Shown here: positions 36,143 to 40,968 of the stretch, piece by piece
Position numbering within the stretch: position 1 is the first letter of the stretch
Layout of the letters: each line of letters begins with the position of its first letter
Source: a plasmid
Length of the DNA: 64,000 nt
Strand: one strand, 5' to 3'
Sequence record: NZ_KX443406.1
Position numbers and translations under genes: made by a program
Notes under the pieces: model-generated
The model's input: only the letters and a program-made list of their open reading frames with translations
What the model was told of the DNA's origin: nothing
Databases searched by the model: none

Positions 36143-36906
36143 GCCAGCTCTCCTGTCGTGTCGGCGTTGTGGTCTTGGACGGCAGTCAACTGTCCGAGCG
36201 CGTCGAGGGCGTCGGTCCACGCGTCGAGAGCTCCGCTCGACAGGCGCCGGTGGTCGAGGCGTCCCGGCAGCGCGAGCGCAGCGTCGAACGGGACCTCGAC
36301 GAACCCGGCGGTGCGGGGCGCGAGTGCGTCCCGGATCGGCGCGAGGTCGATCAGGGTCTCCGGCATCTGGTGGGAGATGGTCACGATCGTGCGTGCCAGG
36401 GTGTCGGCGCCGTAGGTCTTCATCAGCCAGCCGAGGGCATCGCGCATTCGACTCAGCGGCTCGGACCGCGCCGGGGCCACGATCACGATCCCTGCCCCGG
36501 CTTCGATGAGCGGGCCGAGGCGACGCGAGCGCAACGCCGGACCGACGTCGTGGAAGCGAGCCAGGCTGCGGTCTGCGAGTAGACCGTCGACGAGGGCCGG
36601 GTCGGTGGTGTCGCCGTGCCCGACGACGACCACACCTGCGCTGCTGACGGCCATGCGGGATCCGAGCTGGCGAATCGCGCGGGCACTGTCGATGGCGTCG
36701 ATGCCGGTGCGTTCGAGCAGGTTCCCGCCGTCGGAGGTTCCGTCGATCGCGGCGACGTCCGAACCCGTGCCGAGCCGCAGTGCGGTCGCCAACCCGTAGG
36801 TCGTTGTGGTCGACGCGGCTCCACCGGAGCCGGCAACGACGATGGCCGACACCTGCTCCGGATCCGTCACCTTCGGTGTCCTGCGCAGGGGGTAAACGTT
36901 CGTCAT
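36139..36906 (-). CDS. ParA/MinD-like protein with degenerate P-loop (SGGAASTTTT)
   Basis: AIVVAGSGGAASTTTTYGLATALR occupies the Walker A position with no lysine; the rest has ParA-like alternation of beta strands (VVVVGHGDT, IVIVAPA). Confidence 0.45.
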   Translation of the reverse strand: MTNVYPLRRTPKVTDPEQVSAIVVAGSGGAASTTTTYGLATALRLGTGSDVAAIDGTSDGGNLLERTGIDAIDSARAIRQLGSRMAVSSAGVVVVGHGDTTDPALVDGLLADRSLARFHDVGPALRSRRLGPLIEAGAGIVIVAPARSEPLSRMRDALGWLMKTYGADTLARTIVTISHQMPETLIDLAPIRDALAPRTAGFVEVPFDAALALPGRLDHRRLSSGALDAWTDALDALGQLTAVQDHNADTTGELA

Positions 36907-38063
36907 TTGCGGTCCTCCACTGTCGCGATCTTCATTCCGCCGTCACCGGGTGCCGTGGTGATCCACTGCCGGTGAATGCCTTCGCTGCCAACGGGCGGGA
37001 TCCTCAGCAGCACGTCGACTGACCAGCGGTTCGGGTCCGGGGTCGGGAGCACGGTCACGCAGTGGTCGGTGCCGACGGGGACGGCGTCGATGAACGACTG
37101 GACCTCCGCTACCGGGGACGGCATCACCATCAGTGACGCGACGGCGTCTCCACTGCGCTTGACGTAGTAGGCGTGCTCGAACGCCTGGATGACGGCCGGA
37201 CCGGAGTCGCGTCCACCAGCGCCGTTGCCGACGATGCGGTCCGGCTCGTTGACTGTCTCGCACCAGGCCGGGGCTGCGGCCGTTGTTTCCGCGGACGTTT
37301 CCGCTGACGACGTCGACTCAGGCAGGGGCGGCACCGGGGTCTCACCGCTGTCGCCGGTGAAGGCGAGGACCGCGCCGGCGGTGACTACCGAAAGCGCCGC
37401 CACACCTGCGCCGACCAGCATGAAGGTCTTGCCGCCCGAACGCCCTCCCCCACCGTCGCCGTCACCGGCAACGGCCACAGGTTCGGTCGGATCCGCGGGC
37501 GGAACGTCGGCTGCGGGCAGCGCCGTCGCCGCTGCGGGCCTCTGGACACGCAGTCGGCCGACGACGGACTTGAAGCCGCCACGCGTGCGTTCGATGGCGA
37601 CGAGGGGCTCGCGGGGAATGTGGGCGCGCACCCAGTCCGGTGCGTCGGCGTAGGGGTCGAGGGGTAGCAGTTCGTGCTCGTCGACGAAAGCGCCGTCCGA
37701 GTATGCCTGGGGCGAAGCCGATTCGGGGGCCCACTCGCTGTACGCCTGGGGCGCGACTGCGGCGAACTGCTCCGTCTCGGCGTCAGCGGCCGCCGTGGGC
37801 GCGTCGATCGGCTGGAGGTCGGTCTGGATGATCGACTCCGTGTCGATCGGTTCAAGGTCTGTCTGCACGACCGAGTCCTGCTCGACGTCGAGCGGCTCGA
37901 GGTCATGCTCGAAGACGGCGGCGTCCGCCTCTGCGAACGTCTCCGCCGGGATGGGGAAGTCCAGTCCGTCCGAGACTGGGGTGTCGTCGGCTGGGGTCTG
38001 GTCGGTCCCGTAGTGCTCGATCACGTCGGGGAACAGCTGCTGCTCCCGATTGTCCGTCGACAT
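36903..38063 (-). CDS. acidic-repeat single-pass membrane protein
   Basis: N-terminal 150 aa are Asp/Glu-rich with repeated LEPIDxxSxxQTDL units. Central TM (FMLVGAGVAALSVVTAGAVLAF). C-terminal ~120-aa globular domain. Confidence 0.45.
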   Translation of the reverse strand: MSTDNREQQLFPDVIEHYGTDQTPADDTPVSDGLDFPIPAETFAEADAAVFEHDLEPLDVEQDSVVQTDLEPIDTESIIQTDLQPIDAPTAAADAETEQFAAVAPQAYSEWAPESASPQAYSDGAFVDEHELLPLDPYADAPDWVRAHIPREPLVAIERTRGGFKSVVGRLRVQRPAAATALPAADVPPADPTEPVAVAGDGDGGGGRSGGKTFMLVGAGVAALSVVTAGAVLAFTGDSGETPVPPLPESTSSAETSAETTAAAPAWCETVNEPDRIVGNGAGGRDSGPAVIQAFEHAYYVKRSGDAVASLMVMPSPVAEVQSFIDAVPVGTDHCVTVLPTPDPNRWSVDVLLRIPPVGSEGIHRQWITTAPGDGGMKIATVEDRK

Positions 38064-38128
38064 TTATCCTCCGTGTGAATGGGTGGGGGCAGGTTTCCCT
38101 GCCCCCACCTGGGGCTTCACGAGTTCGA

Positions 38129-39280: not shown

Positions 39281-39306
39281 TCGTTTCTCTTCTTTCTTCG
39301 AGGGTT

Positions 39307-40968
39307 TCAGGAGTTCGAGTCGGAGTTCGCGATGCCGACGCCGCCTTGTTCGATCAGCGCCGGTTCCGACTCGTCACGGCTGGTCGTCGTGGTCGCAGAC
39401 GTGGTGGACGTCGTCGTGGTGGGAGCGGTACTGATCGTCGTGCTCGTGGTCGTGGTCGGCTTCGGTGACGTCGTCACGGTGGTCGGCCGAGCCGCGCTGG
39501 TGGCCTTTGTGGTGGACGTCGAGGAGGTCTTCGAGGACGAACCCAGATCCGCGGCCGCCGCAGCGAGCCAGGAGGCGACGAACTTCGTCGGAGCCTGTCC
39601 GGTAGGGGTGGCCGGGATGGAGCCGTAGGAGCCGTGCTCGACCGCGGTGTTGCGGTACGAGGACAGCGCCACCAGGTCGAACGTGTCGCGGTTGGCCTTG
39701 AGCTCGCTCTGGACGATCTTGAACGTCTGGCTCACGAGGCGCTGCGTCGTCGCCGGCGGAATCAGCTCAGGCAGAACACTGACCGCCTTGGCAGCCAGAA
39801 TCGCCATCGCCGCAGGCGGATTCGCCAGCCCCACGGTCGCAACCGCCGCGATGGTCTCCGGCGTCAGAACCTTCTTCGCGACCGTCACAGCGGCGTTGAG
39901 GCCAATCAGACCGACCTTCACCAGCGCCGAGGTGACTTCCTGCCCCGTCGGCGGCTTCGCTCGCGGATCCGATGCCTCAGCCAGACGCTGCGAAATCGTC
40001 TTCTTCGGCTGGATCGAGATGTTCTCGAGTGCGTTCTTCGGAGCCTGAATGTCCTTGTTGATGACGTCGACGGCGGTCTTGAACGTCGTCGATGCCAGCG
40101 CGCGCCCGATCGTGGTGACTGCAACGAACGGATCCCCACCGATCTCGGCCTGTCCCGCCACGTTGACAACCGCACGAGCGATCGGCGCATTCGGCGGAGC
40201 GTCGCACGCGAGATCGCCGGTCTGGCACCACGACGAGACACGCCCGGACAGAGATCCGTAGTCCTTCGCGACGTCAGATACCGGGCCGATGCCCGCACCC
40301 TTGGGCGAGGCGAATGAGACGGGCGCCAGCGCCCCGACTTCCTCGCCACGGGTGCCCGGGACCGGAGTCGGCGTCTGCTGCGACGTACCGGGGAACAGGC
40401 CCGCACCTTCGCTGCGGGTGGGCGCGCCGAACAGAGCGCCCGCCGCAATTGCCGAGGCAGGAACCGCGCCGCTCCCCTTCCCCACCGACCGGAGGAAGTT
40501 GCTCGCTGCGTGCGCGCCCTGAGAGAAACCGACCACCGCGAGCTTGGTCTTCGGGCACTTCGCCAGCACCGTCGTCGCAGCCTGTGTGAGGTTCTCCTCC
40601 CCCTTCGCGACCGAGACCGCGTAGGAATCGGTTCCGCCGGGCGTGATTCCGCCGAACGACCCGGGGTAGGGCACATACGCGCGATCGACGCTCGCACCGA
40701 GCTCACGCGCCTGGCTGAGCATCGGCGACATGACCGTGCCGAGCATCCCCGTGTCCGCCTTCACCGGTGCATCGGGCGACGTCTCCGTCGTGCCCTGCAG
40801 ACCGAGCGCGAACAGGTCTGGGCAATCACCCACCAGATCATCGAGCCATGCGGCCTCCGCGGGCGGCGGCGGCGACTGCGCATACGCCGGCGCGGTACCG
40901 AGGCCGGCGACGGCGACAACAGCCGTCGAAACCGCTACGGCAGCAACACGTCTGGACCAGTTCTCCAT
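39307..40968 (-). CDS. secreted cutinase-like serine esterase with Thr/Ser-rich C-terminal tail
   Basis: Signal peptide (AVAGLGTAPAYAQ). Cutinase-family nucleophile elbow LAVVGFSQGAHAASN plus a conserved Cys pair (CPKTK...DLACD). C-terminal TSTTKATSAARPTTVTTSPKPTTTTSTT linker is typical of cell-envelope-anchored actinobacterial enzymes. Confidence 0.6.
   Translation of the reverse strand: MENWSRRVAAVAVSTAVVAVAGLGTAPAYAQSPPPPAEAAWLDDLVGDCPDLFALGLQGTTETSPDAPVKADTGMLGTVMSPMLSQARELGASVDRAYVPYPGSFGGITPGGTDSYAVSVAKGEENLTQAATTVLAKCPKTKLAVVGFSQGAHAASNFLRSVGKGSGAVPASAIAAGALFGAPTRSEGAGLFPGTSQQTPTPVPGTRGEEVGALAPVSFASPKGAGIGPVSDVAKDYGSLSGRVSSWCQTGDLACDAPPNAPIARAVVNVAGQAEIGGDPFVAVTTIGRALASTTFKTAVDVINKDIQAPKNALENISIQPKKTISQRLAEASDPRAKPPTGQEVTSALVKVGLIGLNAAVTVAKKVLTPETIAAVATVGLANPPAAMAILAAKAVSVLPELIPPATTQRLVSQTFKIVQSELKANRDTFDLVALSSYRNTAVEHGSYGSIPATPTGQAPTKFVASWLAAAAADLGSSSKTSSTSTTKATSAARPTTVTTSPKPTTTTSTTISTAPTTTTSTTSATTTTSRDESEPALIEQGGVGIANSDSNS

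Follow-up and report, generated by a model that had tools for sequence, protein, structure and literature searches.

The analysed stretch of plasmid record NZ_KX443406.1 (hereafter the window; 64,000 nucleotides) contains three consecutive open reading frames (ORFs) on the minus strand, which encode a cutinase-family serine hydrolase (39307-40968, 553 amino acids, aa; gene 1), a protein rich in glycine-zipper motifs (38129-39280, 383 aa; gene 2) and a single-pass membrane protein with a predicted DUF8176 domain (36903-38063, 386 aa; gene 3). All three agree with the RefSeq coding sequences of the Prescottella (Rhodococcus) equi plasmid pVAPB1593 (NC_011150.1), to which the region is 100% identical, while its identity to pVAPA-type plasmids is ∼98%; a window coordinate equals the NC_011150.1 coordinate minus 89. 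The genes are the promoter-proximal first three of a type IV secretion system (T4SS) operon. An earlier reading made from the letters alone (the sequence-only reading) had described them as the last three genes, at the distal end of a conjugation operon. This has to be reversed, since they lie on the minus strand beside a divergent helix-turn-helix (HTH) gene, and that reading appears to have followed the operon in plus-strand order.

The third-codon-position GC content of genes 1-3 is 0.82-0.85, and a purine-rich ribosome-binding site precedes each start. The gaps from gene 1 to 2, from 2 to 3 and from 3 to the next gene (gene 4) are 26, 65 and -4 nt, respectively, and no terminator-like site was found on the minus strand within or after the three genes. 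In RefSeq, the minus-strand gene string continues uninterrupted from the cutinase gene (39307-40968) to a topoisomerase gene (20471-22945). The three genes and their main features are as follows; model confidence is given as the predicted local distance difference test (pLDDT) of AlphaFold2.

39307..40968, minus strand: gene 1, the operon's first gene, long-form cutinase-family serine hydrolase of 553 aa (Pfam Cutinase, 2.8e-15; RefSeq name 'cutinase family protein')
40879..40968, minus strand: signal-peptide-like N-terminus of gene 1, residues 1-30 (...APAYA/QS), with hydrophobic residues 7-28 (Kyte-Doolittle 2.03)
40198..40839, minus strand: alpha/beta core of gene 1 up to the catalytic Asp, with the four conserved Cys (conserved alignment columns; pLDDT >90 over most of the core)
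39649..40197, minus strand: all-helical insert of ∼183 residues (258-440) between the catalytic Asp and His (modelled helices 262-437, pLDDT 60-83)
39634..39636, minus strand: codon of the catalytic His445 in the motif EHGSY (invariant in both alignments; surrounding segment pLDDT 86-98)
39379..39537, minus strand: Thr/Ser-rich low-complexity tail of gene 1, residues 478-530 (72% Thr+Ser; pLDDT <50)
38129..39280, minus strand: gene 2, Gly-zipper protein of 383 aa (homologues named 'insoluble domain protein' by NCBI)
38447..38740, minus strand: Gly-zipper stretch of gene 2, residues 181-278 (98 residues), uncharged and GxxxG-rich
36903..38063, minus strand: gene 3, single-pass membrane protein of 386 aa (hydropathy and charge counts)
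36906..37310, minus strand: predicted DUF8176 domain (PF26527) of gene 3, residues ∼252-386, of NTF2-like fold (Cys268 and Cys335 conserved)

Gene 1 belongs to the cutinase family. Its match to Pfam Cutinase (PF01083, the carbohydrate esterase family 5 type) scored 57.1 bits against a gathering score of 25.9 and covered profile positions 19-149 of 173; the His-bearing end of the profile stayed unmatched because the insert separates the Asp from the His. Against the NCBIfam equivalog for Culp6 (NF050160) the protein scored 61.2 bits with a cutoff of 570, and it is thus related to Culp6/Rv3802c but no orthologue of it. A profile search of solved structures returned Rv3802c of M. tuberculosis (Culp6; 1.6e-27) and MSMEG_6394 of M. 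smegmatis (2.1e-25) as the best matches. Foldseek with the AlphaFold2 model of gene 1 (mean pLDDT 74) gave the same two at the top (1.3e-9), followed by acetyl-xylan esterases and fungal cutinases, all with a probability of 1.00. With these two mycobacterial proteins gene 1 shares the alpha/beta core, the GxSQG motif, the CxxGDLxC loop that holds the Asp, and the cysteines that would form the disulfides. The alignment to Rv3802c, the product of a chromosomal housekeeping gene, stops at the Asp loop, while gene 1 continues with a helical domain of ∼190 residues before its His.

In homologue alignments of 25 and 45 sequences, Ser149, Asp252, His445, Cys138, Cys248 and Cys255 were invariant and Cys49 was nearly so. 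Ser149 lies in GFSQG (GFSQGA being residues 147-152; codon 40522-40524) and Asp252 in CQTGDLAC (codon 40213-40215). His445 is off the usual cutinase position, 193 residues beyond Asp252. The signal-peptide-like start, GFSQGA elbow and cysteines that had been described for this protein were thus all recovered, with four Cys conserved. The Ser/Asp/His triad was kept in 45/45 close and medium-distance homologues and in nine of ten distant T4SS-linked ones, and this invariance argues for selection on catalysis. An Asp-to-His spacing of 128-271 residues was seen in every T4SS-linked homologue, including the distant ones and the cutinase of the Rhodococcus fascians plasmid pFiD188 discussed below. 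Within the insert of gene 1, the helices at residues 345-363 and 373-391 are moderately hydrophobic by hydropathy analysis. Short ordinary plasmid cutinases lack the insert, and their tblastn matches cover only residues 49-261 to 49-279 of gene 1.

The Thr/Ser-rich tail differs between homologues in both length and sequence and is missing in some; tblastn matches of gene 1 to pVAPA and other plasmids end near residue 464. Its composition bears out the earlier description, while the terms 'cell-wall linker' and 'secreted' used there can stand as predictions. After the tail, at 39307-39378 (residues 531-553), we observed a short C-terminal motif conserved within clades, which reads ...EQGGVGIANSDSNS in close Rhodococcus relatives and ...PFS-x-N in Nocardia. 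This is no sortase motif.

The surroundings of gene 1 relatives were compared in a scan with one genome per species, which yielded 401 relatives. The best 80 loci of these 401 were examined; they come from Rhodococcus, Nocardia, Gordonia, Williamsia, Aldersonia and others, and lie on plasmids as well as on large chromosomal contigs. Where 5 kb or more of downstream sequence was available, 68 of 70 loci of other species carried at least three of eight core T4SS markers downstream of the cutinase gene, on the same strand and in the order found in the window. The remaining two loci are rearranged, yet in both of them T4SS genes adjoin the cutinase. The linkage was present even where the SCO6880-family protein of the operon, which is taken as the marker of the operon type, shows just 25-35% identity. 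By profile search a cutinase was detected in 9/9 plasmid loci of mycolata, and it occupies the operon head in orthologous operons of Rhodococcus, Nocardia, Gordonia, Dietzia, Corynebacterium and others. Because the position in the operon is conserved across genera, we regard the cutinase as a dedicated conjugation accessory and not as cargo, in line with the earlier proposal that it belongs to the conjugation system.

Mycobacterial cutinase-like proteins are linked to lipid metabolism and virulence, and the plasmid is a virulence plasmid, so that the gene might be thought of as incidental cargo, i.e. a host-adaptation, virulence or nutritional lipase that came to lie beside transfer genes. This explanation is hardly credible and was rejected on synteny: cargo would not be expected to hold one position in 68/70 loci across genera, plasmids and chromosomal elements, to persist in operons with such a divergent SCO6880 protein or to be so tightly spaced within an operon, and the ordinary short cutinases of plasmids are without the insert.

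Three plasmids show a further arrangement. In two Nocardia farcinica plasmids (L090 8092-10629 and L093 5070-7612; L numbers are our locus handles) an NlpC/P60 gene directly follows the cutinase gene, and in R. qingshengii pdjl-6-2 (L094 4355-7759) an M23 peptidase gene does so. Going by their sequences, these would be adjacent pairs of lipid-esterase and peptidoglycan-hydrolase genes.

Since the loci above were found through the cutinase itself, we also used a sample chosen independently of it, in which plasmid loci were picked by tblastn matches of the SCO6880-family protein and then scored for a cutinase by a profile (hidden Markov model) search. A cutinase-family ORF was present near the operon head in 6/6 loci from mycolata (Corynebacterium atrinae, two Nocardia farcinica, Gordonia amicalis, Dietzia kunjamensis and R. 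qingshengii) versus 0/8 loci from non-mycolata (Arthrobacter, Rathayibacter, Streptomyces, Curtobacterium, Kocuria, Cellulomonas, Brevibacterium and Clavibacter; Fisher p=3.3e-4). Likewise, apart from a single Cryobacterium record, the tblastn matches of the cutinase on plasmids came from Rhodococcus, Prescottella, Gordonia, Nocardia, Corynebacterium, Dietzia, Hoyosella, Tsukamurella and Mycolicibacterium. SCO6880 is also found on plasmids of Streptomyces (82), Arthrobacter (51), Clavibacter (21), Paenarthrobacter (19) and Curtobacterium (15), and for these five genera the plasmid-wide tblastn search gave no cutinase match. In several non-mycolata operons the head is occupied by a peptidoglycan hydrolase (CHAP, M15 or M23) instead.

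In detail, the CHAP gene of Arthrobacter pSI-1 and the M15 gene of Curtobacterium come first after a divergent HTH gene and lie upstream of DUF6668, and in Cellulomonas an M23 gene immediately precedes the DUF6668 gene.

L005 9937-11016; L095 6054-7139; L097 8542-9630: peptidoglycan-hydrolase genes of non-mycolata upstream of DUF6668

The 5' part of the T4SS operon of Clavibacter michiganensis pVQ143 contains a gene annotated 'alpha/beta fold hydrolase' (L099 8789-9562), which according to the cutinase profile is not a member of the family. Apparent non-mycolate carriers of the cutinase numbered only two, namely the Cryobacterium plasmid and a contig labelled Streptomyces sp. NPDC002130 (L074). 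The latter is a 2.5-kb contig with a 52%-identical cutinase and a DUF8176 match, and may be a contamination.

Gene 3 is a constant neighbour of the cutinase: DUF8176 was found near it in 72/72 cutinase loci with enough flanking sequence. The first 150 residues of the protein hold 36 Asp/Glu versus 2 Lys/Arg, and a single transmembrane segment spans residues 213-237 (nt 37353-37427). The nine Lys/Arg among residues 151-212, just ahead of this segment, suggest an N-in, C-out orientation. The acidic N-terminus is variable among homologues; the excess of acidic residues and the transmembrane segment noted before are thus real, and the 'repeat array' amounts to three imperfect DL[EQ]P[LI]D units. 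Only the C-terminal third is widely conserved, with tblastn matches on 180 plasmids, every one of which belongs to a mycolata genus, and an exhaustive search placed DUF8176 homologues in 620 representative clusters. In Pfam and NCBIfam, neither gene 2 nor gene 3 had a match that reached the threshold, so that PF26527 was not matched directly in gene 3; it is the precomputed label of 12/14 homologues found with the C-terminal half. The order of the two genes is cutinase then DUF8176 in the Gordonia loci L002 and L091 (by profile) and, as tblastn positions suggest, in Rhodococcus and Nocardia, while DUF8176 comes first in Dietzia, Corynebacterium and one R. qingshengii plasmid.

An N-in single-pass topology followed by a C-terminal NTF2-like domain is also typical of the VirB8-like proteins of T4SSs, whose Gram-positive NTF2-fold representatives include TcpC, TraM and TraH of pIP501, PrgL and OrfG. 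Beyond the general NTF2 fold, no Pfam match of gene 3 to VirB8, TcpC or TraM was obtained even at E<=10, and in structure searches VirB8-like structures scored no better than unrelated NTF2 enzymes. Gene 3 thus looks like a VirB8-type component but cannot be filed as one. As DUF8176 is restricted to mycolata, a role as partner of the cutinase fits better, and we infer such a partnership.

When DUF8176 was considered as a possible paralogue of a VirB8-like gene common to all these operons, its profile gave only weak matches (E 1e-4 to 1e-6) to a gene further downstream in the operons of some non-mycolate and Nocardia farcinica loci:

L096 10290-11123; L098 10763-11464; L099 10592-11479; L090 13316-14020; L093 10304-11008: weak DUF8176-profile matches

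These could represent a distant paralogue, or an artefact of transmembrane or low-complexity columns of the profile. Among all other proteins of the window, the profile found no match.

Gene 2 begins with a signal-peptide-like N-terminus and includes a 99-residue stretch free of charged residues. The Gly-zipper stretch holds 16 GxxxG motifs, compared with 7.5 ± 2.0 in shuffled sequences, and a count of 16 was reached in 1/5000 shuffles, which substantiates the Gly-zipper repeats reported previously. The match to Pfam Gly-zipper_Omp (PF13488) scored 14.8 bits, below the cutoff of 25, and our literature search on 'insoluble domain protein' returned nothing relevant. One may speculate from the GxxxG pattern that the protein inserts into a membrane or oligomerises. 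By tblastn, gene 2 was found on 206 plasmids (163 Rhodococcus, 42 Prescottella and 1 Nocardia), and it was present in 17/72 cutinase loci, at times upstream of the cutinase. Given this sequence distribution, we treated it as an accessory specific to the Rhodococcus/Prescottella lineage. The trio that the sequence-only reading had put forward therefore reduces to a pair: the cutinase and the DUF8176 domain co-occur everywhere tested, while the Gly-zipper protein is limited to these two genera and the acidic N-terminus of gene 3 is variable.

A role of such a cutinase in conjugation has precedents, contrary to what had been assumed for this locus. In PMC6794481 (Alvarez-Narvaez et al., 2019) a conjugation role is proposed for the secreted cutinase of the R. 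equi plasmid pRErm46, and an analogy is drawn with LysB of mycobacteriophages; with reference to Francis et al. 2012, a passage of that paper also says that the conjugation of R. fascians pFiD188 is promoted by a cutinase. Going by this passage, the idea as such is not new and was published in 2012 and 2019. We found no paper that discusses the cutinase gene of pVAPA or pVAPB.

The pRErm46 cutinase comes from the same species and is 40% identical to gene 1 over residues 49-463 (tblastn), so that core, insert and His segment are all included. It too lies upstream of a SCO6880-family gene on the same strand. The plasmid backbone differs, with a MOB-P relaxase in pRErm46 versus MOBF here, and the role of its cutinase is a proposal. 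The only cutinase-family gene of pFiD188 (strain D188) adjoins conjugation genes, and its product has a signal-peptide-like N-terminus, the same four Cys, the Ser in GFSQGA and the Asp in GDxxC. Its His follows an insert of 229 residues, so that the long-insert architecture is common to both proteins. This gene is presumably pFi_086 of Francis et al. 2012.

Two other kinds of envelope hydrolase offer functional parallels. Mycobacteriophage LysB (D29 gp12, PDB 3hc7) is a mycolyl-arabinogalactan esterase, and thus an analogous case of a mobile element pairing a cutinase-type esterase with a peptidoglycan hydrolase to get through the mycolate layer. LysB works from inside the cell during lysis and has neither a signal peptide nor a helical insert. 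Its sequence similarity to gene 1 is marginal (profile E=1.1e-3), and it was not among the top 50 Foldseek matches. The VirB1-type lytic transglycosylases of Gram-negative T4SSs are likewise dedicated, operon-encoded hydrolases that locally open one envelope layer. They differ from gene 1 in fold and chemistry and in acting on glycan strands and not on lipid esters, and the operon of gene 1 has an M23/SLT enzyme of its own. The 2012 abstract by Francis and colleagues is said to speak of a new role of actinobacterial cutinases in conjugation.

Taking these data together, we consider it probable, with moderate confidence, that the cutinase is a dedicated promoter-proximal accessory of the SCO6880-type T4SS, confined to mycolate-membrane hosts, and that it is an exported esterase which likely opens the mycomembrane for transfer. 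The gene 1 protein would leave the cell via its signal peptide. Its sequence places it in the Rv3802c/Culp branch and is that expected of an active Ser-Asp-His esterase, with the helical domain inserted at a place where Rv3802c has a short lid. Its most likely job would be the local hydrolysis of lipid esters, mycolyl or other (in trehalose mycolates, mycolyl-arabinogalactan or phospholipid), and this would allow the transfer apparatus or the mating junction to cross the mycomembrane. For the lipid layer, the cutinase would then correspond to the M23/SLT peptidoglycan hydrolase, whose presence in the operon had been correctly noted and which is encoded in the same gene string. It would probably work with the adjacent DUF8176 protein, the NTF2-like domain of which is predicted to face outward, and in Rhodococcus and Prescottella the Gly-zipper protein may accompany it too.

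The predicted export, together with a long Thr/Ser-rich tail that could reach outward, would also suit an enzyme that has the partner cell or surface lipids as its target and serves cell-cell contact, mating-pair stabilisation or exclusion, with no part in the passage of a channel. The data do not separate donor from recipient as the site of action, and this explanation overlaps with the opening of the mycomembrane to such an extent that the two are hard to separate computationally. As the protein has no adhesin-like domain, and the tail varies and is missing in some homologues, we think an exclusive role of this kind very unlikely.

Several observations weigh against a mycomembrane-opening esterase. 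The comparison of six with eight loci is a small sample, in which the two N. farcinica plasmids among the six are related to each other. The pFiD188 cutinase is only 26-29% identical to gene 1, and it stands divergently beside a different transfer locus (with an FtsK/SpoIIIE-type ATPase) on a linear plasmid and without an adjacent DUF8176 gene; a transfer of function from pFiD188 to gene 1 would accordingly be indirect. A non-lipid ester substrate is possible given that acetyl-xylan esterases are the next-best structural matches, and catalysis appears not to be retained universally. These last two points each lead to an alternative explanation.

The first is that the enzyme removes non-mycolyl cell-wall esters, such as the O-acetyl or succinyl groups carried by peptidoglycan or arabinogalactan, or acts on membrane phospholipid, and thereby helps the peptidoglycan hydrolase without opening the mycomembrane. 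The family 5 acetyl-xylan esterases follow Rv3802c both in structure and in sequence, the cutinase gene stands directly beside NlpC/P60 or M23 genes on some plasmids, and Rv3802c itself is described as a phospholipase/thioesterase. A helper that deacetylates the wall would be equally useful in non-mycolate actinobacteria, yet none of the eight operons sampled from these hosts encodes the enzyme, and no plasmid of the five genera gave a tblastn match to it. We therefore judge this explanation rather improbable.

The second alternative is that the cutinase is mainly a structural or scaffolding element in the outer part of the transfer apparatus, its core and insert providing an anchor or adaptor within the mycomembrane or the cell wall, with hydrolysis secondary or dispensable. 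In the homologue of the Corynebacterium atrinae plasmid pJCM19266b (L088 9595-11280), the nucleophile Ser is replaced by Gly (GVGQGA) and the His by Lys, yet the Asp, all four Cys and the 193-residue Asp-to-His spacing are retained. Moreover, the insert is conserved and helical in the model with its two moderately hydrophobic helices, some cutinase homologues are annotated 'membrane protein', and the gene is tightly adjacent to that of a bitopic NTF2-like protein. The C. atrinae copy may be a pseudo-enzyme with a structural role, or it may belong to a decaying element: its plasmid was typed as non-mobilizable. If the plasmid is indeed decaying, this single exception loses its force. The invariance of Ser, Asp and His in all other homologues compared speaks for selection on catalysis. 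A mainly structural role is thus unlikely.

A more elaborate version of the esterase proposal, which we put forward tentatively and think less likely than not to hold in full, is a dedicated mycomembrane module, which mycolata would have acquired at the head of a T4SS operon that is otherwise common to actinobacteria. In such a module the insert of the cutinase would engage the mycolate layer, the DUF8176 protein would tether or position the enzyme, and, in Rhodococcus and Prescottella, the Gly-zipper protein could line or seal the opening. If this were true, the module would play the part that the outer-membrane core complex has in Gram-negative T4SSs, the crossing of the mycomembrane by conjugative DNA would become directly testable, and the dead C. 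atrinae copy would point to an essential structural role beyond hydrolysis.

To our knowledge, the passage of conjugative DNA across the mycolic-acid outer membrane is not well understood. The operon family studied here spreads the virulence plasmids of R. equi (pVAPA and pVAPB) and, on the related pRErm46, macrolide and rifampin multiresistance. The operon-head cutinase of mycolata and its uncharacterised DUF8176 partner provide two genetic handles on the mycomembrane crossing. This does not constitute a new kind of system, and refines in a testable manner the idea of 2012 and 2019. As far as we can tell, the systematic description of a mycolata-only distribution at the operon head, the long helical insert as the hallmark of T4SS-linked cutinases, the DUF8176 protein as co-conserved partner of the cutinase and the catalytically dead variant are additions of the present analysis.

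The other genes of the operon to which we have referred, and the regulator gene that marks its head, are listed below.

41068..41580, plus strand: divergent double-HTH (XRE-type) regulator, marking the operon head (Pfam HTH_3, 2.2e-28; RefSeq start at window position 41122)
36139..36906, minus strand: gene 4, ParA/CbiA-like protein (Pfam CbiA 8.3e-4, sub-cutoff); its start overlaps the gene 3 stop by 4 nt, and it is kept downstream in most loci
35570..36220, minus strand: DUF6668-like protein of the T4SS operon (Pfam DUF6668 2.4e-4, sub-cutoff; syntenic plasmid genes are annotated DUF6668)
30339..31841, minus strand: SCO6880-family T4SS protein, marker of the operon type (RefSeq name; tblastn matches on 436 plasmids across Actinomycetota)
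28551..30326, minus strand: putative VirB4-like ATPase of 591 aa (syntenic genes annotated 'ATP/GTP-binding protein' or DUF87; no Pfam match of its own at E<0.01)
26603..28258, minus strand: peptidoglycan hydrolase with M23 and SLT domains (Pfam Peptidase_M23 5.8e-31, SLT 2.9e-6)
24017..26029, minus strand: type IV coupling protein, TraG/VirD4-like (Pfam TraG-D_C 1.6e-25, T4SS-DNA_transf 1.9e-18)

According to RefSeq, a DUF4913 protein is also encoded in this minus-strand string. Many related loci likewise have a homologue of the HTH gene, in divergent orientation, upstream of their cutinase. Between the HTH gene and the cutinase start, at 41041-41056 on the minus strand, we observed a GC-rich hairpin followed by a T-rich run, which is terminator-like and could be an operator or attenuator.

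We do not regard the plus-strand ORFs that overlap genes 1-3 (e.g. 38075-39628) as coding, because the GC pattern of their codon positions is out of phase. A tandem-repeat finder detected no meaningful DNA repeats in genes 1-3, and an Rfam scan of the window returned no RNA family. Elsewhere in the window, the listed ORF of 3229 aa at 1051-10740 on the plus strand is a candidate gene. Over positions 58000-64000 the GC content drops from about 0.65-0.70 to 0.58-0.59, which may indicate the border of an island gained by horizontal transfer, for example the vap pathogenicity island of this type of plasmid.

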